A DNA stretch of 59,493 bases from a bacterium (lineage in GTDB: Bacteria; Patescibacteriota; Patescibacteriia; Patescibacteriales; UBA12465). The stretch lies in contig JAUYNJ010000006.1 in the NCBI GenBank assembly GCA_030696105.1, positions 1 to 59,493 on the forward strand. Reading direction: 5' to 3'. The translations under genes were made by a program, and so were the position numbers. This document shows positions 3,885-38,518 of the stretch, one piece after another. Each line of letters starts with the position of its first letter. Position 1 is the first letter of the stretch. Under the pieces are notes generated by a model. It was not told the origin of the DNA. It did not search any database and worked only from the letters and a program-made list of their open reading frames with translations.

Positions 3885-5459
3885 TTATTTCACAAGCTGC
3901 TTGAGTCCGAAGTTGATTAAGCGCTCATTGTCCTTGAAATTATCATCTTTACTCTGAGCTCCGAAGTTAACAATGATTAAATTACCAAGCGGACTCTCAA
4001 CTCTCGTCATTAAACAGTATCCAGCTTCATCGAGATAACCGGTTTTAGAACCGGTGATATTATAGCCAGCGGAAAGTAAGCCGCTGTTCGTATTTGATAG
4101 GTTGTGTTTTATTTTCTTGTTGATGGTAGTGAAAGAATATCTAACAGTTGAGCTAATTTTTTTAAGTAAAGGATTTTTGAAAATCTCTTTTATCATTATA
4201 GCATAATCAAGAGGAGAACTCACATTCTCCGGTGATAATCCACTCGGTTCAACGAAACGAGTTGAGGTTGCACCCCAAGCTGCCGCCTTTTCATTCATCT
4301 TCGCAATAAATTCATTACGACTTAAACCGCTCACGCGCACCAAACTTTCCACTGCATTGTTGGCTGAGCCAACAAGCGATGCATAAAGCAGGTCTTGAAT
4401 CTTCATTGTCTCCCCGTCAGCAACGCGCAAACGAGCTGACTCCCATGGTTTGCAGTATAGATGATTATATTGCTCATCTTTTATTGAGTAGGCAACTTCA
4501 CGGTCAAGCGACGGATTGGTATCGAGGAATACTTGCGCAGCAACAAGCTTTGTTAAGCTCGCAAGTGGTGCGGTAGTACTAGCATTCTTACCGAAAATAA
4601 TACTGCCGTCGGACTCTCTGATGACAATAGCTGATTTTGAAGACACCGTTACGACGGAGCCAGCTGGCTCAATCTTTTCTTTATCCTTAGCGGTCACTAA
4701 CTTAAGCGGCTCAATTTTAACTTTAATAATGCCGGCTTTGGTTGAGGCAATTTTAGAGAATGCAACAGCATCAAGATCGATAACACGTGAATGGTGTAAC
4801 TTGCGATCTGGGCCGTAATCGTTAATTGTGACATTAACGCTTTTGCCGTTATCAAGATTTGTGACTTTAACTACTGTGCCCTTGGCAAAATCGGGGGAGG
4901 CTGCAAACAGGCCACTTTTAAAGCGATACCAGCTAGCATCACCAACGGTCATAACCTGACTATTAGTGAGGACGGCAATGCGCGCAAACGGAAAATGGAT
5001 ATTAGCACTAACAATTTTTTTGATAGGGTCATCTACCGAAGGAAGTGGGCGCCATCTTTTTTGTCCGCCATCATAGAAAAAAATCTGCTTGTAATCATCA
5101 TTCTTTTCTTCATACTTAAACTCAAGACGGAGAGGCTGCGCGCGGTCATAGGCGACGCCACGATCGGTGAAGTCGAATTGATAAACTGATGTTAAGGGGC
5201 TGTAGTTCCAGGGCGATTCAAATTTAGAGCCCAGGTCATCAATTTTCATAGCTGAGGCCTGCTTTATTGCCTTGGCTGGGAAACTAATCTTTATAGCACC
5301 AGCGCTAGCAGATTGCACTACCCCAGCCTTTAACTGCACAGTGGCGCTAACTGGCGCTGGCGCGGCGATTAAGAGCTCTTCTGCTTTAAGTGTTGCCATT
5401 GGAAAGGCAAAAGCGGTAATAAGGATGGCTACTAATACGGTCTTAATGTATTTATTCAT
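3885..5459 (-). CDS. Secreted fusion of an RlpA-like double-psi beta-barrel domain and a D-alanyl-D-alanine carboxypeptidase (S11)
   Basis: Signal peptide present. RlpA-like region GDASWYRF...VVKVTNLDNGKSVNVTINDYGPD. PBP motifs SLTK (SxxK), SAN (SxN) and KTG. Sits just upstream of ftsE, separated by a 4-nt gap. Confidence 0.85.
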   Translation of the reverse strand: MNKYIKTVLVAILITAFAFPMATLKAEELLIAAPAPVSATVQLKAGVVQSASAGAIKISFPAKAIKQASAMKIDDLGSKFESPWNYSPLTSVYQFDFTDRGVAYDRAQPLRLEFKYEEKNDDYKQIFFYDGGQKRWRPLPSVDDPIKKIVSANIHFPFARIAVLTNSQVMTVGDASWYRFKSGLFAASPDFAKGTVVKVTNLDNGKSVNVTINDYGPDRKLHHSRVIDLDAVAFSKIASTKAGIIKVKIEPLKLVTAKDKEKIEPAGSVVTVSSKSAIVIRESDGSIIFGKNASTTAPLASLTKLVAAQVFLDTNPSLDREVAYSIKDEQYNHLYCKPWESARLRVADGETMKIQDLLYASLVGSANNAVESLVRVSGLSRNEFIAKMNEKAAAWGATSTRFVEPSGLSPENVSSPLDYAIMIKEIFKNPLLKKISSTVRYSFTTINKKIKHNLSNTNSGLLSAGYNITGSKTGYLDEAGYCLMTRVESPLGNLIIVNFGAQSKDDNFKDNERLINFGLKQLVK

Positions 5460-5475
5460 AGAAATAATTGATTAA

Positions 5476-5505
5476 TTGACGAATAAGGCTTCCTTTGCTT
5501 ATAAT
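5476..5505 (+). promoter_or_regulatory. Promoter of the tRNA-Gly/tRNA-Thr pair
   Basis: TTGACG (5476-5481), N18, TATAAT (5500-5505), 11 nt before the tRNA-Gly 5' end. Confidence 0.55.
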
Positions 5506-5516
5506 ATGGAAGTGTT

Positions 5517-5588
5517 GCGGGTGTCGTATAATGGTTATTATGCAAGCTTCCCAAGCTTGAGACGGCGGTTCGATTCCGCTCACCCGCT
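5517..5588 (+). tRNA. tRNA-Gly (anticodon CCC)
   Basis: Acceptor GCGGGUG/CACCCGC, anticodon stem CAAGC/GCUUG, loop UU-CCC-AA, T loop UUCGAUU. The D stem is weak (3 bp). Confidence 0.85.
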
Positions 5589-5594
5589 CATATT

Positions 5595-5670
5595 GCCGAG
5601 ATAGCTCAATTGGTAGAGCAACGGTATCGTAAACCGTAGGTTGTGGGTTCAAGTCCCATTCTCGGCTCCA
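5595..5670 (+). tRNA. tRNA-Thr (anticodon CGU), CCA encoded
   Basis: Acceptor GCCGAGA/UCUCGGC, D arm GCUC-AAUUGGUA-GAGC, anticodon stem ACGGU/ACCGU, loop AU-CGU-AA, T loop UUCAAGU, then U-CCA. Confidence 0.9.
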
Positions 5671-5681
5671 TTTTAATCAAT

Positions 5682-8375: not shown

Positions 8376-10349
8376 TTATTCTGGGCGCCTAGAAAAATCA
8401 ATTACCTCGTCTTCGGAGATATCTTGTTCGGGAGACTTAGATTCTTTTTGCGCGGGGCGCGGTGTTTTTTCTGGCCTGCCCTTAAAGTCAACTGGCTGAG
8501 CGCGATGAAGGTCGGACAATGATAATGCCGGGGGCATTTTTGCTAACTCTTCACTTTTTGCCTGCTTACGTTCCTCGACTTCTACATTTTTTTCCTGGCG
8601 TTTCATCGCCAAACATTCTTTACAAAATACAGGTCGGACACCATCAGGGACGAAAACCGTGGTCGTCTCCACGCCACAACGCGAACAGGTTGCTGGATAA
8701 CCAACCTTTTCGCTTGCCAGCGGTCTAACTACCGCCTCAACTGGCCTCGCTGTAACCGTCGGGACTGGTGTTACCACATGATTATTGTGGACCAAAGCGG
8801 CTGGACGCTGGGGCGTAGGCGGAGGGGTTGATACTGGCGGGTAGACTTGAGCAACAGGAGAGGTTGATACTGGGGCTGCTGATTTTGGTGTGGGTTCCCC
8901 ACTTTTTTGAGGAGCTGGTACTGCTTTTTCAGTGGCTGGAGTCGCTCTTACGACCGGTGCGGATGCCGGGGCTTTAGTAGTAGTCACAGGATCTGGATTA
9001 TAAGTTCTAGTGGTCGCCGCCGGACGTGGAGTAGAGGGTGTCAGAATCGCCGGACTAGTACTTGGAGCCTCCTCTACTTCATGCCAGCGCAAAATGCGAT
9101 CTTCTACTTCAGAACGACGACTGGCAAATTTTTCTCTTGAAACCTCTATCACCTTATCAACGTTAAAGGTGCGCTCTTCGTCGGTGAGCGGAGCTAAACC
9201 CTTTGCCGAAAAAGGAGAAGATGCGACACCGTCAATCATTAATTTTAAATACATTTCATACTTTGGTAGATTCACTAAATCTTCCTCAGTGAATACAGGG
9301 GCGAATTCTTTTGCCAACTCTTCGGCATCAGTTGCCCCGACACGGAAGGAAACCATCGTACCAACGTTACCAAAGACGGCCGGTTTCACTTTTTCACTCA
9401 ACTGTTCAATATATTGATGAGCAAGAATGAGATTTAAATGATATTTTCGGGCTTCAGATAAAATGTTGGCAAAACTGTCGGTTGAGAAATTTTGGAATTC
9501 ATCGATATAAAGATAAAAATCTTTACGCTCCTTCTCGGGCATATCGACACGACTCATAGCGGCTAACTGAATTTTGGTAATCATCATCGCCCCAAGTAAG
9601 GCAGAGTTATCTTCACCGATTCGACCCTTACTTAAATTCATGATTAAAATCTTACCATCATCCATGATTTCACGAATATTAATTGCAGATTTTACCTGAC
9701 CGATAATATTACGCATCAAGGAGCTTGATAAGAATTGTCCAACCTTATTCTGAATTGGAGACACCGCTTCGGAAGCAAACTTATCGGCATAGGAAGCAAA
9801 TTCTTTTTCCCAGAAAGCTTTAACGACCGGATCCTTAATATTTGCCACCACTCGTTTGCGATATGTTTTATCCGACAGCATGCGCACAACGCCCAAAAGC
9901 GTGGAACCAGGAAAATCCAGAATCGCTAAAATTGCATTTCTCAAAATGTATTCCAAACGAGGACCCCAAGAATCAGCCCAAAGTTTTTGGAAGACGCCGA
10001 GAAGCCCTGAGGCAACGAGGTGACGTAAGTGTGGCTCAACTTGTTCGAGAACGTTAAAAGCAATCGGAAAATCCATGTCTGCCGGATTGAAATACACAAC
10101 GTCTTTAATACGATTGTTAGGAATATACTGAATTATCTTTTCCGCCAAATCGCCATGCGGATCAACCACCGCCAAACCATGACCAGCGCGGATATCGCCG
10201 ACGATCATGTTCTCCTGAATCGTCGACTTACCCATGCCAGTTTTTCCAATCAAATACATATGACGGCGTCGGTCGTCAGTTTTAATGCCGAATTTCTTGA
10301 ACTGGTTGCGAAAAGTTGTTTCAGCGAATAACGCTATATCTTGGCTCAT
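8376..10349 (-). CDS. Soluble TraD/TraG/VirD4-family (type IV coupling-protein-like) P-loop ATPase with a Pro/Thr-rich linker and a C-terminal CxxC-x17-CxxC zinc ribbon
   Basis: Walker A GKTGMGKST, DPHGDL, Walker B YLYIDEFQNF, no N-terminal TM. A P/T/A/V-rich low-complexity stretch spans about 8700-9077. CSRC-x17-CKEC lies at 8613-8687, followed by a K/E-rich tail. Confidence 0.7.
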   Translation of the reverse strand: MSQDIALFAETTFRNQFKKFGIKTDDRRRHMYLIGKTGMGKSTIQENMIVGDIRAGHGLAVVDPHGDLAEKIIQYIPNNRIKDVVYFNPADMDFPIAFNVLEQVEPHLRHLVASGLLGVFQKLWADSWGPRLEYILRNAILAILDFPGSTLLGVVRMLSDKTYRKRVVANIKDPVVKAFWEKEFASYADKFASEAVSPIQNKVGQFLSSSLMRNIIGQVKSAINIREIMDDGKILIMNLSKGRIGEDNSALLGAMMITKIQLAAMSRVDMPEKERKDFYLYIDEFQNFSTDSFANILSEARKYHLNLILAHQYIEQLSEKVKPAVFGNVGTMVSFRVGATDAEELAKEFAPVFTEEDLVNLPKYEMYLKLMIDGVASSPFSAKGLAPLTDEERTFNVDKVIEVSREKFASRRSEVEDRILRWHEVEEAPSTSPAILTPSTPRPAATTRTYNPDPVTTTKAPASAPVVRATPATEKAVPAPQKSGEPTPKSAAPVSTSPVAQVYPPVSTPPPTPQRPAALVHNNHVVTPVPTVTARPVEAVVRPLASEKVGYPATCSRCGVETTTVFVPDGVRPVFCKECLAMKRQEKNVEVEERKQAKSEELAKMPPALSLSDLHRAQPVDFKGRPEKTPRPAQKESKSPEQDISEDEVIDFSRRPE

Positions 10350-10667: not shown

Positions 10668-11393
10668 TTAAATTCGAGCTCGACATTCCTTGACATATTT
10701 ACTGCCAATCAGTGCCAAAGACTCTAATTCCTTATCCAAAAAGGTCTGCTTGCCCTCAAAGGAGGTGTTAACCAAATTTGTGTCAGGTTTAAATTTTTGC
10801 AAATACCAGCGATTTGCTCCCGATATAATTTCCCCCATCTTGCGAATATCATCCTCATTGTGAAACTCGGGTAAGAGGGTACTCCTAAACTCATAGGGCA
10901 AGCCGCTTGTCATTATCATTTTAACACTTTTTTGCAATTTCTCTAAATTCACCGGCACGCCCACAACTGCCTCATACTTCTCCCACGGCGCTTTAATATC
11001 CATTGCAATGTAATCTATTAATTTCTTATCAATTAAGCGTTTGAGCATATCGGGGTTAGTACCGTTTGAATCAAGTTTAACTAACAGGTCCCGGTCTTTT
11101 ATTTTTTTTATAAATTCAGGTAAATCAGCATGCAGCGTTGGCTCCCCGCCAGTAATAACGACACCATCTAGTTTTCCCTTTCTATTTTCCAAAAAAAGAA
11201 AAAGGTCTTCCTCTTTAAGAGAAAAACCTTTATCTTTATTTGATTCGTCCGCCTCCGATTTTACACGGGGCAAGACAAGCATGGGGTTGTAACAAAAGTG
11301 GCAACGGAAATTACATCCCTGAGTAAACACGATTGCGGCCAGATTATCTGGGTAGTCGAGCAGTGTCAATTTTTCTAATCCACCAATTATCAT
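10668..11393 (-). CDS. nrdG: Anaerobic ribonucleoside-triphosphate reductase activating protein (radical SAM)
   Basis: CNFRCHFCYN radical-SAM CxxxCxxC cluster, VVITGGEPT, and its position in the nrd operon. Confidence 0.85.
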   Translation of the reverse strand: MIIGGLEKLTLLDYPDNLAAIVFTQGCNFRCHFCYNPMLVLPRVKSEADESNKDKGFSLKEEDLFLFLENRKGKLDGVVITGGEPTLHADLPEFIKKIKDRDLLVKLDSNGTNPDMLKRLIDKKLIDYIAMDIKAPWEKYEAVVGVPVNLEKLQKSVKMIMTSGLPYEFRSTLLPEFHNEDDIRKMGEIISGANRWYLQKFKPDTNLVNTSFEGKQTFLDKELESLALIGSKYVKECRARI

Positions 11394-11460: not shown

Positions 11461-11607
11461 TTATTTTTGTGAGCCTTCAACCTTGAAGGTTTTGCGATCA
11501 ACATACTCCGAAGCCTTCCCCGGATTATAGTTTTTGACCGGTGTCAACCAACCGACGACGCGGCTGTAGACGATGCATTCTTGGCGAACTGTAGTAATGG
11601 GGCTCAT
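11461..11607 (-). CDS. 48-codon ORF encoding the C-terminal glycyl-radical segment of class III RNR; not in the supplied ORF track
   Basis: Hand translation: MSPITTVRQECIVYSRVVGWLTPVKNYNPGKASEYVDRKTFKVEGSQK. It contains the YSRVVG(Y/W) glycyl-radical loop and an NxGK motif normally found at the NrdD C-terminus. It lies between nrdD and nrdG. No SD is visible, though most genes here lack one. Confidence 0.55.
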   Translation of the reverse strand: MSPITTVRQECIVYSRVVGWLTPVKNYNPGKASEYVDRKTFKVEGSQK

Positions 11608-11675
11608 ATCGATCTATTCTGAAAAAGTGAAGCGCGGCCTCTATCTTTTTCAAGAATTATTAAAAAAATAAAAAA

Positions 11676-13730
11676 TTAATTGATTTCACCAGTGCGCTCT
11701 GATTGCATTTCAGCGCTCGTATAACCCATTTCCTCGTCGCACTTCGGACAATATTTATGCTCGCCGGATAAGTATCCATGTTTCGGACAAATCGAGAAGG
11801 TTGGAGTGATGGTAAAATAAGGAAGACGGTAATTTTCAATGATGCGTTTAGCTAATTTCTTAGCAACATCACCATCTGTTAAGCGTTCACCGAGATAACC
11901 ATGCAAAACTGTGCCACCAGTGTATTTAATCTGTAAGTCGTCCTGTAAATCAAGCGCAGCGAAGATATCATCAGAGTAATTAACGTGCAAGTGTGTTGAA
12001 TTCGTGTAATAAGGAGCGGCGCCAGCCTTGGCGGCTTCAGTGTTAGCGAAAATCATATCTGGGTATATCTCTAAATCTTTCTTGGCGAAGCGATAGGTGC
12101 AGCCTTCACCTGGAGTTGCTTCCAAATTGTAAAGATTATTCGTTTCATTCTGATAATCCATCAAGCGTTCGCGCATTGTGTCCATCACTTCCAGCGCGAA
12201 TGCGTGACCCTCAGGAGTCGTAATATCCTTACCAAGTAAGTTGAGTAAGGCCTCATTCATGCCATTAATACCGATAGTGTTGAAATGATTCTGCCAGTAA
12301 GTGCCAAAGCGAGCTTTAATATCGGCTAAGTAATGACGGGAGTAAGGATATAGGCCATCTTCAGAGAATTTCTCAATCACCTTACGCTTTATTTCCAAAC
12401 TTTCTTTTGCAATGTCCATTAACTTTAGAACTCTTTCCTTGAACTCCTCCTTAGTCTTCATTGTATACCCAATACGAGCAAGATTCAAAGTAACAACACC
12501 TAAGCTTCCGGTTAAGGGATTTGCTCCAAAAAGCCCGCCACCACGTTTACGTAATTCACGATTATCAAGTCTCAGGCGACAGCACATTGAACGGGCGTCA
12601 TCGCGATCCATGTCAGAATTTACGAAATTTGAAAAGTAAGGCACACCATACTTCGCAGTCATCTCCCAGACTGGCTTCATGCTCTCTCTATCCCAGTCAA
12701 ACTCCTTATCAATCATGTAGGTTGGAATCGGGAAGCCAAAGACGCGTCCAGTTGAATCACCCTCCAACATAACCTCAGCAAAAGCCTTGTTAAACATGTC
12801 CATTTCCACCTGAAAATCTTTATACTTTTCTGGCTTGATTTCACCGCCAAGAATCACATTTTCCTCACCAACTAATTTTGAAGGAGTCACGTCCATCGTA
12901 ATATTAGTGAAGGGTGTCTGGAAGCCAACTCTAGTCGGCACATTGATGTTGAACATGAACTCCTGCAGACCTTGCTTAACTTCCTTATAATTCAGGCCGT
13001 CGTAGCGAATGAAAGGCGCAAGATAAGTATCAAAGTTAGCGAAGGCCTGCGCGCCGGCGGCTTCACCCTGCATGGTGTAAAAGAAATTAACAATTTGCCC
13101 CAGAGCACTACGGAAATGCTTCGGCGGTTTGCTTTGTACTTTTTCCGAGACCCCACCAAAACCTTTAATTAACAGGTCCTTTAAATCCCAGCCGCAACAA
13201 TAAGGTGCAAGCAAACCAAGATCATGAATGTGAAGATCGCCATTAATATGCGCTTCACGAATAGACTGAGGGTATAATTTGTTAAGCCAATAACGAGCGG
13301 AGACAGCGGAGGCAATATAATTATTTAAACCCTGCACCGAGAAACTCATGTTACTATTTTCTTTCAAGCGCCAGTCAGCGCGGCCCAAGTAATCCTCCAT
13401 CAACTTTTCATCCGATGTCGCCTTACTTAATTCACGCAACTGTCTATGCTGATCGCGATATAGGATATAAGCCTTGGCGGTTGCGATTTGTTTATGTTCA
13501 ATTAAAATCTCTTCGACGATATCCTGCACCTCTTCAACCGCCGGGATACTATTCTTATGAAATTTCTGTGCCACCTTGGCAACTACTTCTTGAGTAAGCT
13601 CATTAGCTAAAGCTTCATCATCAATCTCAACCGAGAGGGCGGCTTTGTAAATAGCTTCCTTGATTTTTGGCTGACTGAAGTCAACTATCTCCCCGGAGCG
13701 TTTCCGGATCTGGCTGATAATTTCGGACAT
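11676..13730 (-). CDS. nrdD: Anaerobic ribonucleoside-triphosphate reductase large part; ends before the glycyl-radical loop
   Basis: N-terminal ATP-cone, the CCRL finger-loop motif (SMCCRLRLD), and PYFTITPTFSICPKHGYLSGEHKYCPKC (Zn site). The ORF stops 24 codons after CPKC without an RVxGY motif. Confidence 0.85.
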   Translation of the reverse strand: MSEIISQIRKRSGEIVDFSQPKIKEAIYKAALSVEIDDEALANELTQEVVAKVAQKFHKNSIPAVEEVQDIVEEILIEHKQIATAKAYILYRDQHRQLRELSKATSDEKLMEDYLGRADWRLKENSNMSFSVQGLNNYIASAVSARYWLNKLYPQSIREAHINGDLHIHDLGLLAPYCCGWDLKDLLIKGFGGVSEKVQSKPPKHFRSALGQIVNFFYTMQGEAAGAQAFANFDTYLAPFIRYDGLNYKEVKQGLQEFMFNINVPTRVGFQTPFTNITMDVTPSKLVGEENVILGGEIKPEKYKDFQVEMDMFNKAFAEVMLEGDSTGRVFGFPIPTYMIDKEFDWDRESMKPVWEMTAKYGVPYFSNFVNSDMDRDDARSMCCRLRLDNRELRKRGGGLFGANPLTGSLGVVTLNLARIGYTMKTKEEFKERVLKLMDIAKESLEIKRKVIEKFSEDGLYPYSRHYLADIKARFGTYWQNHFNTIGINGMNEALLNLLGKDITTPEGHAFALEVMDTMRERLMDYQNETNNLYNLEATPGEGCTYRFAKKDLEIYPDMIFANTEAAKAGAAPYYTNSTHLHVNYSDDIFAALDLQDDLQIKYTGGTVLHGYLGERLTDGDVAKKLAKRIIENYRLPYFTITPTFSICPKHGYLSGEHKYCPKCDEEMGYTSAEMQSERTGEIN

Positions 13731-13819: not shown

Positions 13820-14278
13820 TTATTTTTTTTCTTTAATCAATTTATTCAACTCGCGACGGAATTCATTCGCATCTTTGAAAGATTCATATACTGAAGCGTA
13901 CCGAATATAGGCGACAGGGTCAGTTTTCTTTAAATGTTTCATCACTATTTGTCCAACTTGCAGTGAAGTTACTTCTCCTTGTCTCATTTTCTGTAAATCT
14001 CGTTCGATGCCGTGTATAATCTGCTTAAATTTATCCTCTGTTACTGATCTTTTTTCTAAAGACTTTCTTAAACCGCTTATCAGTTTTTCACGGCTGTAAG
14101 ATTCACGACGTCCATCGCGTTTAACAATAATAAGATCAAGAATTTCAATTTCTTCGTAAGTTGAGAAGCGAAAAGTACACTTCAAACATTCGCGGCGGCG
14201 GCGTATTGAAAGCCCATCCGGTGCAACGCGAGAGTCAACAACTTTAGTGTCGTGATAATAACAAACCGGACATTTCAT
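13820..14278 (-). CDS. nrdR: Transcriptional repressor NrdR
   Basis: Zn ribbon MKCPVC...CLKC followed by an ATP-cone. 152 aa, first gene of the nrd operon. Confidence 0.9.
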   Translation of the reverse strand: MKCPVCYYHDTKVVDSRVAPDGLSIRRRRECLKCTFRFSTYEEIEILDLIIVKRDGRRESYSREKLISGLRKSLEKRSVTEDKFKQIIHGIERDLQKMRQGEVTSLQVGQIVMKHLKKTDPVAYIRYASVYESFKDANEFRRELNKLIKEKK

Positions 14279-14347: not shown

Positions 14348-14376
14348 ATTATAGCAGAATCCAAAATGTGGGTCAA
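14348..14376 (-). promoter_or_regulatory. Promoter of the nrdR-nrdD-nrdG operon
   Basis: Minus strand reads TTGACC (14376..14371), N17, TATAAT (14353..14348). The NrdR boxes lie immediately downstream. Confidence 0.55.
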
Positions 14377-29955: not shown

Positions 29956-32900
29956 TTACTGCGCAGCAACTAGATTAATTACTATTTCCGTCGATTTATT
30001 ACTTTCATTATTTGATGCATCGAGCGCCGATAAACTGAAATAATGATTACCCGCGCTAAAGCCAACGGAGCTAATTTCAATGAAAGAGGCACCATTTTCA
30101 GAGTCAAAGGATTCGCCATATTGACCGCTGGAAACACCGTGATACAGGCGGTGAAACAAGGCGCCGGTCTGTAGGCCGTGCCAAGTAAACCTGATACGTT
30201 GACCACTTTGAATTGTCCCTACTAAGCCTTGCGGAGTCGCGGGTGCAATTTGATCAGTCACAGTCGCCTCTTTCTCGTTAGACAATACGCTTTCAACCTG
30301 GGCAGCGGAAATGGCTGACACCTTAAAACGGTGAGTCACATCAGTCTGTAAATTCTTTAATAGATAGCGACAAGTATATTGCTGACCTGAAGTCGGAGTT
30401 GTGGGAGTGCAAACGGTTCCCTGACCAGCAGCATAGATATCAGTCGGCTTCACATCAAGGAACGACATGTTTCCAGAATTAATGGGCGCGTAATATAACC
30501 GGAATCTGCCCATCTGCGCAGGATTAGCGTTATAAATTAAATTAGAAGAGCTGTTCCATTCGAGTCTAACGGTTTCACCATCCTGCTCGTCAACAGCGGC
30601 TGTAATAGCCCCCGCCTGGGGCGTCGACTCCTTGAAGAAATATGATTCCTTAAGCACGTCCCAAATACAGAAACCGTCACCGACGCCATCGAAATTATTA
30701 TCAGGCCCACAGGTGGCGCCAACATTAGAACAAGCGCTTCTGCCCTCACTGCAAATTAAAGCGCTGCCAGTGCCGCGAATGACTGCGGGGTTAATCATGG
30801 CTGGCAAATCATCGCTAAAGCCATCTTTGCCCGCATCGCGGCAATAATAGAATTTATAGTTATAGGGCTGACAGTTACCAATAGCACCGGCGCAAGTATC
30901 CACCCAAGGAGACCAACTCTGAGTTAGCGGGTTAACCGGCGGCCAAGGATTTTTACATAAGAAGATATATAGTGGAGTTTCACCGACTAAACCGTCACCA
31001 TCGTCATAAGCATTACAACAGTTATTGATACAATTTGGTTCCGCACAAACACAGGATGATGAAGGGTTACACTGCGGCTCCAAGAAGCGATCCATATTGA
31101 TAGTCGAGCGCAGCATGGTTGAATCATCCGTAACTCCACTAGTCATCTCGACGAAGGCTCGATTATTTTCTAGGCCGGTGATTGAACGAATCGATGCGAT
31201 TGAACTTTTTACAACATTCCATTGCCAATCCCAGAAATATCCCTGAGTCGGATAAAGAATCTGACCATTAGAACTAAAGGCGCGCACCGCAAATACCTTA
31301 TCGCGATCACTCTTAGTATCAAAACTATTACTCTGTGGATCCGTGTCATTTTCATTTAAATCATTGGCGTCATTTTGGAATAAATAAGAGGAAGGTTCTG
31401 TCTGAGTATAATCAACCATACAAATACCGCCATTTGCACCCTGTGCTGGTAATGTGGCGAACGAAGCGATATAGGAATTACTGAACGCTAGGTTGTTAAA
31501 GGTGATGCCACTACCTTCAACATAAACGTTGCCGTTAAGGTCTAAGTAGCCACGACCATTCATGCCTAACTGCCAAGAACTCATGACGCCAGAGTTACTG
31601 TCAAGAACCTGATCTCCCTTAACAACGACATAATAATTAGAACCAGCGGCTAATAACTTTTGGGGGGTGAAAGTAGCCGTGGTGCGGTTACCATTATTAG
31701 TGGCTGAAACTGTTCCCGGAACTGAACAATAGAGCTTTGAGGCATCAGGGATGCCAGCCAAAGCCGAGCCTGATTTTAACCCAGTTGTGCTTAAAATTGT
31801 TCTAGTTACTTGAGCTAAGCGCGCTGCAAGTCGTTCAAACCAATTGCGTTGCGGTGTTACAAAACCGTCTAGAGCTGCCACGAAAGTGCCTGCCGGGCAG
31901 ATGCCAACACCATATTCATGCTCCTCTAACAAAATAATATTACTCATTAAACTTACTGGATCCATCAACTGATCAAAAGGAATGCTAATCGACGCATTAC
32001 GACAAACGCCGCTCGTGCCGTGAGCTGGGTTCAAAGCGCTTTCAATAACAGACGGACGCGCCCTGCAACAAGTGCCAGAATCGCAGCCTACATTCTCAAG
32101 GTCGCCACAATCAAGGTCCGCGCTACAACCGCAACAGAGTCCGCGGTTTTCACCTGAACAAGGAGCTTGGTCAGGCTTACAGACAAGATTAAGACCACCA
32201 CTATTTAAACTACTACAGGAAGCTGCATTGCCGACCTCACAACAACAGGCGCCACAATCACCACCTGGTAAACCGGCGCCGCCGCCTTCAGCTAAACAAG
32301 CATAGGGCGAGCCGCAGAAGGAGGTATTACAAGTCGGATCAAAAGTGCTAACACTTAGACAGTCAGTTCCAGGCAAGGGCTTAATATCAGCATAAGGGCA
32401 GTCCCTTACGCACTCACTTTTGCTCTTATAATCTCCTGTTCTGAGCTTCACGTCAGTTTCACACTGCTTATCAAGTGGAGGCGCCTTACAATCATAGTAG
32501 GCACAGTAGCCGTCATCGGTCTTATCAGTGCCACCAACACATTCATTTTGTTCAAAATCATAACAACATTTAGCCGAAGCGCCGCAGGCCGCTTGGTCGC
32601 CATTATATTGGCTGCAAGCGGTACCACCAGGATTAGCTTCACAACCACTAACACACTTAAAGATACTGGTAAACTCGCCGTACATTGTCGGCGTAGTTGA
32701 TGCGCACTGAGCTGGGTCACCAGGAGGTGTGGAGCTTGGACTTGCACAATCATAGAAAGCGCAATATCCAAATTCTGGGGCGTTTTCATCAGTTGTAATT
32801 AACTGACCGCTTCCACCAGTACAAACATCATCAGATGGGTCAGCGGTTCCTTTAGAATTAAGGCAGCAAGTCGCACTGTGAACTAAACAATCATCAGCCG

Positions 32901-35805
32901 ACAAGCGACTACAATCACCACAGTTACCGTTAACGGTTGTAGTGTCACAATATTTCCCGGAGAACTTATCACAATTACAAGCGGCGTCAGAAGCAGCCGT
33001 GTCAACGACACCGCCAACTTCCACGGTACAACCAGTACACTCGCCTAAGTTGGCCTGTCCTGATCCGCAAGAGTCGCCACAGGTTAGACCAGCACAGCAA
33101 TCACGAGCATCTTGGCCAATTACGCAGCAGCAATCACATCGCGCCGCTTCGGTTGAAATACATTTATTGTTAGTACAGGTGGCTAACCCCGTGCAAAGCT
33201 CAGTGCTGACACAAACGCCTTCCGCATTGCCACTATCTTGCTTACAGCTGAAACCGGACTCACAAAGATTACACGTCGAAGTATTAGCGCTAACACTATC
33301 AACACAACGATTATTATCTAACCTCACCCAGCCACTTGGACAAGAGGTCGAGGTTGTAATTTGCCAGTGTGCTTGGCCTCCAAACTGAGGGAAGATACTG
33401 CAAGAACGGTTGGCACTAAATTCTTCGTCTCCCAATTGGAAGGTATAAAGTGAGTTCAGCGAGCAGGTGCTGTTACTTAGAATACAAGCATCAAAAGTAG
33501 AGCTATATGTGCAGTCGTTACCGATACAGGCTGGAACGCTGGCGCAACTAGAATCGCAAGGACCGAGGTCGCGAGGTGCTCCAGCGAAGGGTGAACAGAC
33601 ACCAGGAGAATTTGGACAGAAGGCATTAATCTGACAGGCGCCTAAAGCTTTGGCCATGCCGTCACAACTGTCATATTCTTCTTCACCCGTGCCCGTACCA
33701 AATCCTGTGTCAAAGCCCCATTCAAAAACCGAACGTGGAATATTGATATAACAACTAGCTAAAGTCGGAGCGCATCTTCCCTGTTTGTATGTACCGGCAG
33801 GACAACAAATTTCACCAGAACAGTCAGCATCAATACTACAGGTACCAATTTCAAAATTTACATCATTACCCCAAGTACCGTTTTTAACGACCCTAACCGG
33901 ACCACTAACTGAAGCCGGAGGGGCGTTGGGATTTAAGCGGTCAGCGCCGCGGTCAGAGGTGATAATTCCGCTGACGCCCTTATCACGACTAAATACTGTC
34001 AGGCCGCTTGTTCCTAAATCCCCAAAATATTCACCCCAGAGTGTTACTGGTGTTCCAATGGGACCGCGCGGAGGGGAGATTTTACAAATACTACTTTTTA
34101 AAGCTTCATTGCTATTAGCAGTAAAGACATTCGGATTGGCGTTTTGCGAAGTAACCAGAACCCCGCTTAAATCGACTTTAATCTCATAATTTCCATCGCC
34201 CAACTCCGAAGGAACTTTTACAATAATCTGTTTATCTTTCCAGATAGATGACGCGCACGCTTCTGGGAAAATGTAACTTGCCTCCTGATCACCGAAAAAA
34301 ACTTTTGACTCCCCTTTAGCACCGCCGAAACCGCCGCCGTGTATAGTAACGTATTGCCCGGCGCGACCAGTTGTTGGCTCAAAATATGAAATATAGGGGC
34401 CGGCGTTTGGCTCCTCTTGTTTTACAAATTTTACATAATTACTTTTTTGCGCAATACCATTAACAGAGCTGACCACAAAACTACTCATGCCACCTTTTTG
34501 TAAATTAGGAATAGTTGAAGTGCCGACCAAGCCGGCCGGATTTGCAAACACAGAATCTAAGCCGCGCACATTACGAGCGTAATCACCAAAGTATGCTTGC
34601 CCGCCACTATATAAGTTAATGCCAAAATAATTTACCTTATCACTTAAGCGCCCGGATTCTGGAGTTAATAAACATAAACCAGGGCGAACGAGGTCGTTAG
34701 CAATAAAATCTGGAAGAACGGGGCCAATATCATCATTTGTTGTATCACTCTGACTATCAGCAGCCACTACAGTGAGTGGCCCGGAGACTGAAGATGGCGG
34801 TATAGCCACCACAATCTGATTATTCGTCCAGGAATCAATACAATCAGGATTAACCAATGACGGAGAAATGCCAGGTAGACCACCAGCAAATAATACTTGA
34901 CTGCTCGTCGGATCATAGACACCAAAATTCGTGCCCATGATGGTAATCAAGTTGCCGTCTGCGCCATTAGGTGTCACGACGTCGCATTGCTGACTACAAT
35001 CACTATCACTTAAGCAGGCCCTATTCGCGTCTTCTTCACAAAAGCCACCGAGAGGACTGACAGCCGTGATGACGGGTTGCCCCTCGCAGACACACGAAGT
35101 CTCCCCGCAACTTAAGTATTCGCCGCATAAATTATTATCCGCCTCACAAGTCGGTGTTAAGTCATCGCCATCACAAGAATCGCCGAGTTGTCCTTTGGGT
35201 AAACAGGCGCAGGAATTAGTGTCGCAGTAACTATCGGAGGCACAGATTTGATCAACTGCCTGGCAGCCAGGAAGCAAGGTGTTGCCATCGCAGCTAACCG
35301 GACCGCCGCCGGAATTACAATCAGAGCCGAGGCATGGCCCCCAGTAACCGTCAGTGCAAGTCATGCCACCACCACAGCCACAGGCAAGTGTTTGGCCGGT
35401 AGTACAGGAGCTGCTGCCCCCGCTATTATTTGTCGCGCCTAAGAGACTGTTTAAAATAAAGGTTGCAATTCCCCATGAAGCTAGAATAATCAACAAACCA
35501 ACCACACCATTACGCAAGATCTTTTTTGCTTGATCAATTTTATCCTCTTGACCACCGGCCGTCATCCAAACAAAACCGCCCCAGAGAATCAGACCAAGCG
35601 CCAATAGACCTAGCACCGACATGGCGATATTTATAATCCGAGCTACGACTGTACGAGGATCATCCTGTGTCAGGCTAATGTTGTTACCAATTTCATCCAT
35701 GCCGACATCAACTTGTGCTATAGCGACACGGAAAAAGGCTAAGCTACCGAGAATTAGTATGCTTAAAGCCAGGTAACGCAAAATATTGGTTTTTGATCTT
35801 AACAC
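29956..35805 (-). CDS. Giant 1949-aa surface protein: signal peptide, VirB2/TrbC-like two-helix module, Cys-rich modules, IPT/TIG-like domains and C-terminal FN3-like domains
   Basis: GTG start. Residues 32-125 are paralogous to the 881-aa protein. Three IPT/TIG-like segments (PVITAVSP..ITIMGTNFG; GPYISYFEP..VTIHGGGFG; KISPP..VTLWGEYFG). About 124 Cys by hand count. FN3-like C-terminus. Confidence 0.8.
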   Translation of the reverse strand: MLRSKTNILRYLALSILILGSLAFFRVAIAQVDVGMDEIGNNISLTQDDPRTVVARIINIAMSVLGLLALGLILWGGFVWMTAGGQEDKIDQAKKILRNGVVGLLIILASWGIATFILNSLLGATNNSGGSSSCTTGQTLACGCGGGMTCTDGYWGPCLGSDCNSGGGPVSCDGNTLLPGCQAVDQICASDSYCDTNSCACLPKGQLGDSCDGDDLTPTCEADNNLCGEYLSCGETSCVCEGQPVITAVSPLGGFCEEDANRACLSDSDCSQQCDVVTPNGADGNLITIMGTNFGVYDPTSSQVLFAGGLPGISPSLVNPDCIDSWTNNQIVVAIPPSSVSGPLTVVAADSQSDTTNDDIGPVLPDFIANDLVRPGLCLLTPESGRLSDKVNYFGINLYSGGQAYFGDYARNVRGLDSVFANPAGLVGTSTIPNLQKGGMSSFVVSSVNGIAQKSNYVKFVKQEEPNAGPYISYFEPTTGRAGQYVTIHGGGFGGAKGESKVFFGDQEASYIFPEACASSIWKDKQIIVKVPSELGDGNYEIKVDLSGVLVTSQNANPNVFTANSNEALKSSICKISPPRGPIGTPVTLWGEYFGDLGTSGLTVFSRDKGVSGIITSDRGADRLNPNAPPASVSGPVRVVKNGTWGNDVNFEIGTCSIDADCSGEICCPAGTYKQGRCAPTLASCYINIPRSVFEWGFDTGFGTGTGEEEYDSCDGMAKALGACQINAFCPNSPGVCSPFAGAPRDLGPCDSSCASVPACIGNDCTYSSTFDACILSNSTCSLNSLYTFQLGDEEFSANRSCSIFPQFGGQAHWQITTSTSCPSGWVRLDNNRCVDSVSANTSTCNLCESGFSCKQDSGNAEGVCVSTELCTGLATCTNNKCISTEAARCDCCCVIGQDARDCCAGLTCGDSCGSGQANLGECTGCTVEVGGVVDTAASDAACNCDKFSGKYCDTTTVNGNCGDCSRLSADDCLVHSATCCLNSKGTADPSDDVCTGGSGQLITTDENAPEFGYCAFYDCASPSSTPPGDPAQCASTTPTMYGEFTSIFKCVSGCEANPGGTACSQYNGDQAACGASAKCCYDFEQNECVGGTDKTDDGYCAYYDCKAPPLDKQCETDVKLRTGDYKSKSECVRDCPYADIKPLPGTDCLSVSTFDPTCNTSFCGSPYACLAEGGGAGLPGGDCGACCCEVGNAASCSSLNSGGLNLVCKPDQAPCSGENRGLCCGCSADLDCGDLENVGCDSGTCCRARPSVIESALNPAHGTSGVCRNASISIPFDQLMDPVSLMSNIILLEEHEYGVGICPAGTFVAALDGFVTPQRNWFERLAARLAQVTRTILSTTGLKSGSALAGIPDASKLYCSVPGTVSATNNGNRTTATFTPQKLLAAGSNYYVVVKGDQVLDSNSGVMSSWQLGMNGRGYLDLNGNVYVEGSGITFNNLAFSNSYIASFATLPAQGANGGICMVDYTQTEPSSYLFQNDANDLNENDTDPQSNSFDTKSDRDKVFAVRAFSSNGQILYPTQGYFWDWQWNVVKSSIASIRSITGLENNRAFVEMTSGVTDDSTMLRSTINMDRFLEPQCNPSSSCVCAEPNCINNCCNAYDDGDGLVGETPLYIFLCKNPWPPVNPLTQSWSPWVDTCAGAIGNCQPYNYKFYYCRDAGKDGFSDDLPAMINPAVIRGTGSALICSEGRSACSNVGATCGPDNNFDGVGDGFCIWDVLKESYFFKESTPQAGAITAAVDEQDGETVRLEWNSSSNLIYNANPAQMGRFRLYYAPINSGNMSFLDVKPTDIYAAGQGTVCTPTTPTSGQQYTCRYLLKNLQTDVTHRFKVSAISAAQVESVLSNEKEATVTDQIAPATPQGLVGTIQSGQRIRFTWHGLQTGALFHRLYHGVSSGQYGESFDSENGASFIEISSVGFSAGNHYFSLSALDASNNESNKSTEIVINLVAAQ

Positions 35806-35872: not shown

Positions 35873-38518
35873 TTACTCACAATTACCATTGTCGCCTAAC
35901 ATAGCGCTCGGAACACCATAACAACATGAAGGGTTTTCAGCGTCTGCCTCACAATTTGGTCCAGCACTTGGTTTATAGCAATTTTGGTAAATATCTTTAA
36001 CTCCCGAGCCGACCTGCGCATTATAGGTCACAGACGACTTCATCGGGGTGTGCGATAAGTAAACGTAAGTTAAGTCAGGCTCACCGTCTAGCGGCGCCAC
36101 ATCCCTATTATCAGCTGTCACCCAATAGCCCAATGGGTTAGGAGTAGAACTAAAAATATTAAGCAAGCGATGCTCAATATTTGTCTGACCGCTCTTAACC
36201 ATGGTGCTGCCGGTGCGTAAACTACTATTCATCATTAAGGTGTTGAAAGCAATTTCGATTGGAGCGTCTACAGGCACGTTGCCAGCACTGTTCACAGGAT
36301 TAATAGAAGTAATGCGCGGTGGCTCCGACATGATGGTGTCATTAATATAAAATGACCAACGATACTTATCTTTCAATTCAAAATTTGAACTATCATTTTC
36401 GTTGTAAAACGCAATCGGTCCATCCGCATAAACATCGCGGTTACCGTCGAGAGAATTTAAAGCAGCGTCGACAACGCCATCAAGAGGACTGAGAGCTAAA
36501 GGATAATTTTTGCCGTTCGGGTCCTGACAAATATTTTGACCGAGACTATTCGCCTGACAAAGGGTAAACGGCTGATAGCGAGTGCAATCAAAATTTGTTT
36601 CACAGGTTCGAAGATTGGCGGCGACTAATTGCACGGCTAAGTGACTATTGGCCGGCAAACAATATATTGTTTCGCCACACCCATTCATCCCACATTCCTT
36701 GTCCGAAATAAACTCAACTGTTTTATAGGCATTACTAACCATAAACTTTCCGGCAAGATAATCGCCCCGGCAGACGCCGGCATTACAATCATAAGAAGCG
36801 CAACCACTATTACTTGTGCAGACAGCGCCGTTCCCGGTACTTGACTCAGCGTTAACAATGCGGATGCTATTACTAACTTCATCAGCAGAACCGGACAACT
36901 GTATGGGGTTAATACCTTCATTAAAATTAATTTGAATGACTGAATTCATCGGCCTATCCTTCTTGTCGCGAGACTCCTCAATACGTACTAAGTCTTGCCC
37001 ACCATTAAAAGGGGTTAAAGCTAACGCTGCCGCGTTGTTGGTGTTAAGAATAATATTATTACCAGCGCTACCAGCAATTTTCACCGTCAGCGCTACTCTT
37101 GAAGCAACTTTATCCACATTAATATCAGGATGTCCACTCAACTTACTATATATTTCAGTCGCAACATCTTCGGTATTACAGGAGGGACCATTTACTAAAA
37201 TATTATTACCAGAACTATTAGATGCGAAGGTGTAGACCAGAGTGCCAACACGAAGATTGCTCGCTAAAACTTCCGGCGCGACACTAACTACCCAGGAGTT
37301 TCCAGCCTGATGATCGTCCGCAAGTAAAGTGAAGAAGCCACCAAAGACCGCTTCATTTCCCTGCCAAGCAGTCACACCCAACAAAGTAGAGCCCGTAAAT
37401 AACTGCGCTTGAGTATTATCACTAGTAACGCTTACTACATAGTTATTATAAGATGCATGGTAATCAGAAGCGATGACAGCGGAAGCGTCATTTAAACCCG
37501 CTTGTCTCGTCACTGAAATAATCTCAGCTGCTTGGTATATGTCGGGGCAAGCCTGTACCTGTATGGCCGCACTTGCGTTTACAGCTGCTTGGCTCTGCCC
37601 AAATATATCTTTCTCGTTATCGGGTAAAGGGAAAATTCCGCCTCTTACGATCTGGGGTGGGGTTAAATCAATTGTATTTGTTACCCTAAAACTCCATTGT
37701 AAATAATCACTGAAACAAGTCTTAAATATTGAATTCCCGTCTTCTTTCTTAATTCCACTCGTAAGTCGAACGCTATAGTCTACATCGCCCTCTGCTTGCC
37801 CGAGAAAATCAGTCGGCATAATTACAAAATCTTGACTATCAGCAGAAGCTTGTATCGTTGCGGCTGTAACGTTTTGGACGCCGTCACCCATATCATTTCT
37901 AAAAATCTTGATGTTGCTAGGGTTGATAAGATTGCAGCTTGTGCTGCAGGCGCAGCTACTTCCAGCCGCATCCTGACAAACGGTATCGAGCATAATCGCC
38001 TCTTTGAAGCTAACCATGATAGAAGTATTTCTCGCCACCCCTCTTTGTCCATCTTCCGGGTAAACGCGCTCAACTGTACAGGCACCAATGGCGCCGGCTC
38101 CGGTTAAGAGCGGTTGGTTCGGTGTGTTAATGCCAAAAAATCCACCATTCGTCGCCCCCAAGAGACGGTTCAAAACGAAGGTGGCTATACCCCAGGCTGA
38201 GAGGATAATAATTAAACCGATTACGGCGTTTCTTAAAGTCTTCTTAGCTTGATCAATTTTTTCTTCACTGCCGCCGCTTGTCATCCAAATAAAGCCAGCG
38301 TAAATAATCAACCCGACCGCAATCACCCCAAGAAATAGGAGGGCGATATTAATGATGCGAGCCACGATGATACGTGGATCAGTGGAGGCCAGCTGAATGC
38401 TATTTTCGATTGGCTGTAATCCGATGTCAACATTTTGCGCTAACGCAAAATCAGCTAGGCCAAACCCCGCGACAAGGAGCGCGAGAAATAATAAAAAAGA
38501 GAATAATCTGCAGCGCAT
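35873..38518 (-). CDS. 881-aa surface protein: signal peptide, VirB2/TrbC-like two-helix module and Ig-like (SbsA/Big-type) domains
   Basis: Residues 29-123 align with the 1949-aa protein (about 62 of 95 identical by eye). Ig-like domain starts VERVYPEDGQRGVARNTSIMVSF and PPRITSINPVNSAGNVPVDAPIEIAF. About 25 Cys. Confidence 0.8.
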   Translation of the reverse strand: MRCRLFSFLLFLALLVAGFGLADFALAQNVDIGLQPIENSIQLASTDPRIIVARIINIALLFLGVIAVGLIIYAGFIWMTSGGSEEKIDQAKKTLRNAVIGLIIILSAWGIATFVLNRLLGATNGGFFGINTPNQPLLTGAGAIGACTVERVYPEDGQRGVARNTSIMVSFKEAIMLDTVCQDAAGSSCACSTSCNLINPSNIKIFRNDMGDGVQNVTAATIQASADSQDFVIMPTDFLGQAEGDVDYSVRLTSGIKKEDGNSIFKTCFSDYLQWSFRVTNTIDLTPPQIVRGGIFPLPDNEKDIFGQSQAAVNASAAIQVQACPDIYQAAEIISVTRQAGLNDASAVIASDYHASYNNYVVSVTSDNTQAQLFTGSTLLGVTAWQGNEAVFGGFFTLLADDHQAGNSWVVSVAPEVLASNLRVGTLVYTFASNSSGNNILVNGPSCNTEDVATEIYSKLSGHPDINVDKVASRVALTVKIAGSAGNNIILNTNNAAALALTPFNGGQDLVRIEESRDKKDRPMNSVIQINFNEGINPIQLSGSADEVSNSIRIVNAESSTGNGAVCTSNSGCASYDCNAGVCRGDYLAGKFMVSNAYKTVEFISDKECGMNGCGETIYCLPANSHLAVQLVAANLRTCETNFDCTRYQPFTLCQANSLGQNICQDPNGKNYPLALSPLDGVVDAALNSLDGNRDVYADGPIAFYNENDSSNFELKDKYRWSFYINDTIMSEPPRITSINPVNSAGNVPVDAPIEIAFNTLMMNSSLRTGSTMVKSGQTNIEHRLLNIFSSTPNPLGYWVTADNRDVAPLDGEPDLTYVYLSHTPMKSSVTYNAQVGSGVKDIYQNCYKPSAGPNCEADAENPSCCYGVPSAMLGDNGNCE

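Follow-up and report, generated by a model that had tools for sequence, protein, structure and literature searches.

Sequence and comparative evidence for a probable two-chain class III ribonucleotide reductase in Patescibacteria

Can a class III ribonucleotide reductase (RNR) work when the glycine that should hold its radical is encoded apart from its catalytic barrel? The question is raised by an nrdD locus on contig JAUYNJ010000006.1 (assembly GCA_030696105.1, lineage Patescibacteriota), which we analysed as a single stretch of 59,493 nucleotides (nt), hereafter the 59-kb window. All genes of the locus lie on the minus strand, in the order nrdR, nrdD encoding a large chain of 684 amino acids, a spacer of 68 nt, an open reading frame (ORF) of 48 codons, and nrdG. 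To our knowledge, glycyl-radical enzymes have been described as single chains that bury their own radical loop, the known natural exception being the backup protein GrcA/YfiD. An earlier, sequence-only reading of this DNA had left two possibilities, a decaying pseudogene or an enzyme made of two pieces with a detachable radical-bearing peptide. We favour the second, and put the probability that the locus encodes a working, obligate two-chain class III RNR, with the radical glycine supplied in trans, at roughly 85%.

The large chain (11676..13730, closed by the TAA at 11678-11676) scores above the cutoffs of the curated NrdD models NF006126 (1024 bits, cutoff 548) and TIGR02487 (511 bits, cutoff 326), and matches positions 1-532 of the 562 in the Pfam profile PF13597 (E 5e-182). 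It holds an ATP-cone at residues 7-96 (13443..13712; PF03477, E 7e-21), a 10-stranded barrel, a cysteine finger loop and a zinc ribbon. The finger loop reads SMCCRL (residues 381-386) and is near-invariant in our alignment A2; from the sequence, its Cys383-Cys384 pair (12579..12584) is the presumed thiyl-radical site. The zinc site, CPKH...CPKC, is formed by C648, H651, C661 and C664 (11739..11789), of which C648 and C661 are invariant and C664 near-invariant in the same alignment. The AlphaFold2 model of the large chain is confident, and its top Foldseek matches are class III RNR structures. The chain has no glycyl-radical loop. It stops 20 residues past the zinc site and, as the sequence-only reading had described, without the radical motif; the 684 residues contain no RVxG that this reading might have overlooked, and the RVxG-aromatic motif is present only in trans, on the 48-codon ORF. 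Judged by every sequence and model feature tested, the enzyme is a class III RNR, except that the radical motif does not lie on the barrel polypeptide.

The last 20 residues of the large chain, DEEMGYTSAEMQSERTGEIN (11679..11738), form a lineage-specific tail without counterpart in fused, one-piece NrdDs, and among relatives this tail is 12-42 amino acids long. We considered and rejected the idea that the tail (DEE-I/M-G-Y/F...) is a degenerate, tandem-duplicated glycine loop: 74 distinct tails scored at most 2.5 bits against a hidden Markov model (HMM) of fused C-termini, while shuffled tails reached up to 8.4. The tail ends in CxxC, CxC or CC in 23 of 77 relatives (for example ERCSTC, NPTCC and CVEC), none of which occurs in the window's tail, and the small ORF has a cysteine past residue 41 in 49 of the 77. 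They bring to mind the redox-shuttle pairs of cysteines at the C-termini of class I and class II RNRs.

The part missing from the large chain is found on the 48-codon ORF (11461..11607, TAA stop included), whose translation is MSPITTVRQECIVYSRVVGWLTPVKNYNPGKASEYVDRKTFKVEGSQK. It consists of the loop SRVVG19W followed by a tail of the form NxGK...E..DR..F, that is, a free-standing glycyl-radical loop with the NrdD C-terminus. It matches positions 531-562 of PF13597 (E 8.5e-6), so that the two chains together tile this profile end to end. Among Pfam and NCBIfam models at E ≤0.1 the small ORF matches only PF13597 (NRDD) and other NrdD models, all below their cutoffs, and neither collection holds a curated family model specific to the peptide. 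Against an HMM built from fused NrdD C-termini the small ORFs of the clade score 40-73 bits; a sequence search of the PDB with the 48 residues (E ≤1) gave no match. The predicted radical glycine is Gly19, encoded by the GGT at 11551..11553, and the RVVGW motif is invariant in position. The sequence-only reading had called the motif VYSRVVGY-type, and was right about the radical loop but not about the residue after the glycine, which is Trp20 (codon 11548-11550). The residue at this position is Trp in 106 of 107 clusters of the Patescibacteria-type small ORF, Tyr in 119 of 120 small ORFs of a Chloroflexota type (described below), and Tyr or Phe in all 60 motif-bearing fused representatives.

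The peptide occurs as a free-standing protein in 107 homolog clusters, all of 41-65 amino acids and 66-93% identity. Its N-terminus is also conserved, with S2 kept in 72 of 77 relatives, P3 in all 77, and T6 and R8 in 67. The N-terminal region of YfiD matters for activation by its activase (PMC8683613), and the conserved new N-terminus of the peptide recalls it. A Shine-Dalgarno-like motif is found in the 20 nt upstream of only 2 of the 41 window ORFs of at least 150 amino acids, the leaders being A/T-rich. Because the motif is almost never present in genes of the window, its absence ahead of the small ORF says nothing against translation. The G+C content of the window is 42.7%. GenBank names such peptides either 'hypothetical protein' or by the full enzyme name (e.g. 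KKT12986.1, NLZ74297.1 and MDD4412320.1).

Seen in the window alone, the locus looks like a disrupted gene: the large ORF is without a catalytically essential residue, and no single indel would join it to the small one. The pseudogene explanation, by which a mutation disrupted nrdD and left the small ORF as an unused remnant, starts from these facts. We examined related genomes at one genome per species, which gave 80 loci, mostly from Falkowbacteria and other Patescibacteria, two of them cut by contig ends. In all 78 assessable loci a stop follows the zinc site and an intact small ORF lies downstream; its ATG is invariant (77 of 77). The closest is from HGW-Falkowbacteria-2 (97% identity), and one (L064) lies on the closed 977-kb chromosome CP066698.1. 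In 75 of 77 relatives an ORF with a CxxxCxxC motif comes after the small one. The best 120 large-chain homologs (79-100% identity) are all 673-703 amino acids long, and therefore none of them carries the loop.

Selection on the small ORF points the same way. Its nonsynonymous difference (pN) is 0.18, comparable to the 0.14 of the catalytic core, against 0.45 in the adjacent large-chain tail; the synonymous value (pS) is 0.77, so these sites are saturated. The small ORF is thus under purifying selection comparable to that on the catalytic core, and the tail evolves much faster. Distances between small chains also correlate with distances between large chains (Mantel r = 0.71, a value reached in 0 of 2000 permutations). 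In the window, nrdR and nrdG are both intact, as the sequence-only reading had stated, with scores above the cutoffs of their family models. A gene in decay would hardly be broken alike in 78 species with the fragment kept under selection and co-varying with its partner, and in more distant bacteria the peptide gene is even placed apart from nrdD. This comparative evidence rules out the pseudogene for practical purposes, and we regard it as highly improbable. An artefact of sequencing or assembly that broke a contiguous nrdD has nothing in its favour beyond the general expectation of errors in metagenome assemblies. Independent assemblies from numerous projects (NCBI, ENA, JGI and Logan), the closed chromosome among them, share this architecture but differ in spacer length, and we give an artefact a negligible chance.

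Many of the assemblies with the Patescibacteria-type operon (L002, L010, L012 and others) carry the title 'uncultured Gammaproteobacteria bacterium', individual assemblies that of 'Bacillota' or 'Planctomycetota', and the label of one small ORF is 'Candidatus Methylomirabilis'. Such records appear to have been mislabelled or misbinned.

The region between the two ORFs shows where the chain was cut. In fused relatives the CPKC of the zinc site is followed by 3-6 residues and then by C-E-V-Y-S-R-V-V-G-Y-L-R-P-V. The beginning of the small ORF, TVRQEC-IVYSRVVGW, is colinear with the fused TIKQPC-EVYSRIVGY. Given this colinearity from CPKC onward, the fission lies directly after the last zinc-ligand cysteine. 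New sequence is limited to the first ~5 residues of the peptide (MSPIT) and to the large-chain tail of 12-42 residues. The spacer itself (11608..11675) is 72% A+T. In relatives it ranges from 18 to 249 nt, is likewise A+T-rich without conserved sequence, and places the small ORF in relative frames 0, 1 and 2 in 31, 20 and 26 cases. It contains a weak terminator-like hairpin (GAGGC-CGC-GCTTC, then a T-rich run; 11629..11641) of 5 pairs, a pattern match that chance would also give. Judged by eye, the closest relative (L001) has a hairpin like it, and the other relatives diverge in their upstream stretches. The small ORF begins with ATG-AGY in 77 of 77 relatives. The large ORF ends in TAA in 58, TAG in 18 and TGA in 1, and with such mixed stops an alternative genetic code is not the explanation. 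The variable spacer and mixed stops, together with the pN pattern and the co-variation, support the prediction that the small ORF is an independently translated gene.

The layout claimed by the sequence-only reading (a 68-nt A+T-rich spacer, an ATG-started ORF of 48 codons, and nrdG 67 nt past its stop) agrees with the coordinates throughout. One detail needs correction: stops had been placed in all three frames of the spacer, and this holds for two of them, whereas the third is closed by the TAA terminator and a TAA two codons into the small-ORF region. The conclusion that no single indel can join the ORFs is unaffected.

The two pieces might still be restored to one polypeptide, by a self-splicing intron, translational bypass, programmed frameshifting or readthrough, or trans-splicing of a split intein. 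The family is intein-rich, and bypass has a precedent in T4 gene 60, where a 50-nt gap is bypassed. Group I and group II introns run to hundreds of nucleotides, so that the 68-nt spacer is too short for either, and an Rfam scan of the spacer (E ≤1) gave no match; there is nevertheless a group I intron in phage T4 nrdD (PMC3653736). Bypass or frameshifting would have to cope with a gap of variable length, in all three frames and with no conserved sequence. For a split intein we would look for an N-intein of ~100 amino acids ending the first ORF and a C-intein of ~35 amino acids starting the second. The large-chain tail and the short lead-in of the peptide are far too small for these, and from residue 6 or so the peptide lines up with fused enzymes. 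Finally, two genes stand between the pieces in one more distant locus (L081), and the pieces are unlinked in another (L084). We consider any such recoding or splicing very unlikely.

The loci just mentioned belong to a wider set of split forms. An exhaustive HMMER search against 50%-identity cluster representatives was made, and the best 150 were classified: 69 are loop-less, ending 23-67 residues past the first zinc cysteine, another 66 have the fused form, and 15 could be assigned to neither. The loop-less tails are of several unrelated types (CPKCDEEIGY..., CPYPHTEEDLERFG..., CPKCDAELLAKKANK and CPNHV). A partner peptide was present in both of the divergent Gly-less representatives that we looked up (P0292 and P0245). 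The operon of P0292 (locus L081) encodes the large chain, a homing-endonuclease-like protein and NrdG, followed by a 61-residue NRDD ORF. In the case of P0245, the large chain bears an intein and is followed after 14 nt by a 61-residue ORF. A search with this second type of peptide gave 623 homologs; every one of the best 120 is 52-84 amino acids long, and the named ones come from Anaerolineae, Chloroflexia and Thermoflexia (Chloroflexota). In a member of the Thermoflexia (L084; GCA_011192125.1, DUEL01000005.1) a 60-residue NRDD Gly-loop ORF (5001-5183 of that locus) overlaps the start of nrdG. The two ORFs upstream of it (517 and 529 amino acids) have no NrdD or other convincing Pfam match, and there is no nrdD nearby, so that this genome must either encode the large chain at another place or lack it. 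As loop-less forms make up some half of the NrdD clusters (50% identity) nearest to the window protein, the split enzyme would be a major form in uncultured bacteria rather than a curiosity.

On a rough neighbour-joining tree of intein-trimmed cores, split and fused forms are interleaved, and parsimony requires no fewer than 21 changes. Though too crude for counting events, the tree hints at repeated fission or re-fusion. Mobile elements crowd the NrdD family and are a plausible cause of the fission. Many relatives (P0228-P0377) reach 800-1900 amino acids through one to three inserted segments at recurring sites, namely inside the catalytic cysteine loop (SMC|CRL) and near residues 172-178, 222 and 270 in the numbering of the window protein. 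The protein of one locus (L083:762-4556) has a recorded match to the intein model PF14890, and the inserts that we read have at their end the His-Asn typical of inteins. Such an insert is also present in P0228, which at 77% identity is the nearest 50%-identity representative to the window protein, while the window's NrdD, unlike these relatives with inteins elsewhere in the protein, shows no intein or other insert. At L081 a homing-endonuclease-like gene (4616-5677 of that locus, 353 amino acids; Pfam DUF7487, PHROG 3339 at E 3e-20, HNH phrog_559) stands directly after the loop-less nrdD. Given the inteins at several conserved sites and the homing-endonuclease gene at the split of L081, fission by insertion would be a reasonable origin. 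Two other architectures were noticed by eye in the same set. Eight fused representatives (P0269, P0270, P0284, P0295, P0317, P0321, P0324 and P0332) have an extra C-terminal CPxC domain after the Gly loop that appears glutaredoxin- or NrdH-like, and P0280 and P0333 are apparent NrdD-NrdG fusions.

If the peptide is translated, is its partner the loop-less chain next to it? GrcA is a small protein, of roughly 127 amino acids, and the sequence-only reading had likened the peptide to it. As an alternative to the two-chain enzyme, the peptide could serve, in the manner of GrcA, as a spare part for a one-piece NrdD whose gene lies elsewhere, with the loop-less large chain inactive or otherwise employed. 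Pyruvate formate-lyase has just such a backup in GrcA/YfiD (PMC8683613), and our check for a second nrdD was confined to the 59-kb window. The peptide is, however, linked to a loop-less large chain in every assessable locus and co-varies with it, the large chain is itself under strong purifying selection, and its 120 closest homologs are all loop-less. Genomes in this group are of ~1 Mb (977 kb for CP066698.1), which makes two nrdD paralogs unlikely. We also searched for extra copies of the peptide gene, as a pool of spare parts might require, and found one per locus and a single copy in the window. On this evidence we judge a spare-part role for another enzyme to be quite unlikely.

The analogy to GrcA holds in one respect, that a glycyl loop would be supplied in trans, and fails in another, family membership. 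GrcA/YfiD and phage T4 Y06I are likewise small, free-standing glycyl-loop proteins that supply the radical in trans, and GrcA/YfiD is activated by the activase of its parent enzyme (PMC8683613). Unlike GrcA, which derives from pyruvate formate-lyase, the 48-residue peptide matches only NRDD (PF13597) in Pfam and is derived from NrdD. GrcA acts as a backup once oxygen has cleaved an enzyme that bears its own loop; in the present case no loop is ever part of the large chain, so that the peptide would be the sole radical site and obligate.

Turning to how the favoured two-chain RNR would operate, we propose that the peptide is translated from its own ATG and docks non-covalently on the large chain, at the site that the covalent loop occupies in one-piece NrdDs. 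NrdG would then abstract a hydrogen from Gly19 of the peptide, and for catalysis the radical would move in trans onto the cysteine of the large chain's finger loop. Supply of the radical in trans is chemically plausible because YfiD restores oxygen-cleaved pyruvate formate-lyase by giving it a glycyl loop in trans (PMC8683613) and because the glycyl-radical domain is highly mobile in one-piece NrdD (PMC11226230).

Some points limit this proposal. When the two chains were concatenated and modelled with AlphaFold2, residues 670-710, which include the Gly loop, had a predicted local distance difference test score (pLDDT) of ~30, whereas the same segment of a fused natural homolog reached 93-97 with a comparable alignment. 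MAFFT had paired the 'MGYTSAEM' of the large-chain tail with the fused 'VVGYLRPV' and so left the true loop without rows. Because the low score is an alignment artefact, it counts neither for nor against docking. A further alignment (A1), with small ORFs as separate rows, scattered these ORFs (22-41% identity to the query) and was not used. The search for a fused nrdD or another RNR class was limited to window ORFs of at least 500 amino acids, among which there was none. And the fission could be neutral, any repair advantage being conjecture.

What the split might be good for is a separate matter, and its explanation may be neutral or adaptive; an adaptive one could lie in cheap replacement of the oxygen-cleaved peptide or in a glycine that the activase reaches more easily. 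In glycyl-radical proteins the glycine is where oxygen cleaves the chain. By analogy with this known damage, a possible benefit is that only a peptide of 5 kDa, and not an enzyme of 80 kDa, would have to be replaced. More specifically, and as a tentative idea that we think clearly less likely to be right than wrong, the small chain may be a sacrificial, exchangeable radical cofactor, activated by NrdG when free or loosely bound, then docked, and swapped for a fresh 5-kDa copy once Gly19 has been cleaved. If this is true, activation of the free peptide would avoid the large domain movement of one-piece NrdD, and bacteria living with trace oxygen (Patescibacteria and Chloroflexota) would gain an inexpensive cycle of repair for an essential enzyme that is otherwise fragile towards oxygen. 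In effect this would also be a class III RNR whose radical sits on a subunit of its own, in convergence with the alpha/beta principle of class I.

How does the proposed enzyme compare with known systems? By sequence and fold it belongs to the same family as the one-piece NrdD/NrdG of phage T4, E. coli, Thermotoga maritima and Prevotella copri, with which it shares the ATP-cone, barrel, cysteine finger loop, zinc ribbon, RVxG-aromatic motif, NxGK tail, adjacent nrdG and control by nrdR. It differs from them in that the chain is cut after the zinc ribbon, with the radical glycine and C-terminal tail on a separate chain of 48 residues, in the new 20-residue tail of the large chain, and in the Trp after the glycine, where fused relatives have Tyr or Phe. 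Other RNRs are known to be encoded in pieces. The catalytic subunit of the class II enzyme of Pseudomonas aeruginosa comes from two genes, NrdJa and NrdJb, whose products assemble without splicing (PMC4520616), and nrdA of Aeromonas phage Aeh1 was split by insertion of a homing endonuclease, its products also assembling without splicing (PMC3653736). The homing-endonuclease-like gene at the L081 NrdD split recalls the Aeh1 case. NrdJa/NrdJb and Aeh1 NrdA nonetheless belong to other RNR classes, are split at other positions and have no tiny fragment with the radical-storing residue. The likeness to the alpha and beta chains of class I is a functional analogy only: there too a radical is stored apart from the catalytic barrel and delivered to an active-site cysteine, but the peptide is not homologous to the ferritin-like beta chain, the radical is glycyl rather than metal/tyrosyl, and its generation and transfer distance differ.

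The sequence-only reading knew of no described two-piece NrdD. Our search of full-text literature, including RNR phylogenies of 2022 and a glycyl-radical enzyme review of 2026, likewise found no two-chain NrdD described, most subscription journals being outside its coverage. A natural, obligate two-chain class III RNR would be a system in which to study activase access to the glycine, entry of the loop into the barrel and cross-subunit radical transfer. It would also permit a direct test of whether a separate sacrificial part makes repair after oxygen damage cheaper. There is a consequence for annotation as well. Large chains are at present named as ordinary reductases and the peptides fall below many ORF-length cutoffs, so that in metabolic reconstructions of Patescibacteria and Chloroflexota the enzyme could be mistaken for a broken one, or one of its subunits overlooked.

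The genes for the two chains are flanked by nrdR and nrdG. The repressor gene nrdR (13820..14278) encodes 152 amino acids with a Zn_ribbon_NrdR domain and an ATP-cone, and scores 183.6 bits against TIGR00244 (cutoff 124.65). The consensus promoter that the sequence-only reading had mentioned is present upstream of it: a sigma-70-like, TG-extended TTGACC-17-TATAAT at 14348..14376 with 11 of 12 consensus matches, identified by pattern match only. The NrdR boxes reported with it did not reappear, as a consensus search allowing up to 3 mismatches gave no match near the operon. The activase gene nrdG (10668..11393), at the other end, encodes a radical S-adenosylmethionine protein of 241 amino acids that scores 203 bits against the NrdG2 model TIGR02495 (cutoff 131). 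The match to this profile of 193 positions ends at residue 202, leaving a C-terminal extension of ~40 residues.

Elsewhere in the window we noted type IV secretion-like content at 8376-10349, 29956-35805 and 35873-38518, all on the minus strand. The window encodes a coupling protein of the TrwB/VirD4 type with a C-terminal treble-clef zinc finger and a long linker rich in Pro, Thr and Ala. Two giant proteins of the window (1949 and 881 amino acids) begin with N-terminal type IV secretion system pilin domains, followed by immunoglobulin-like domains.

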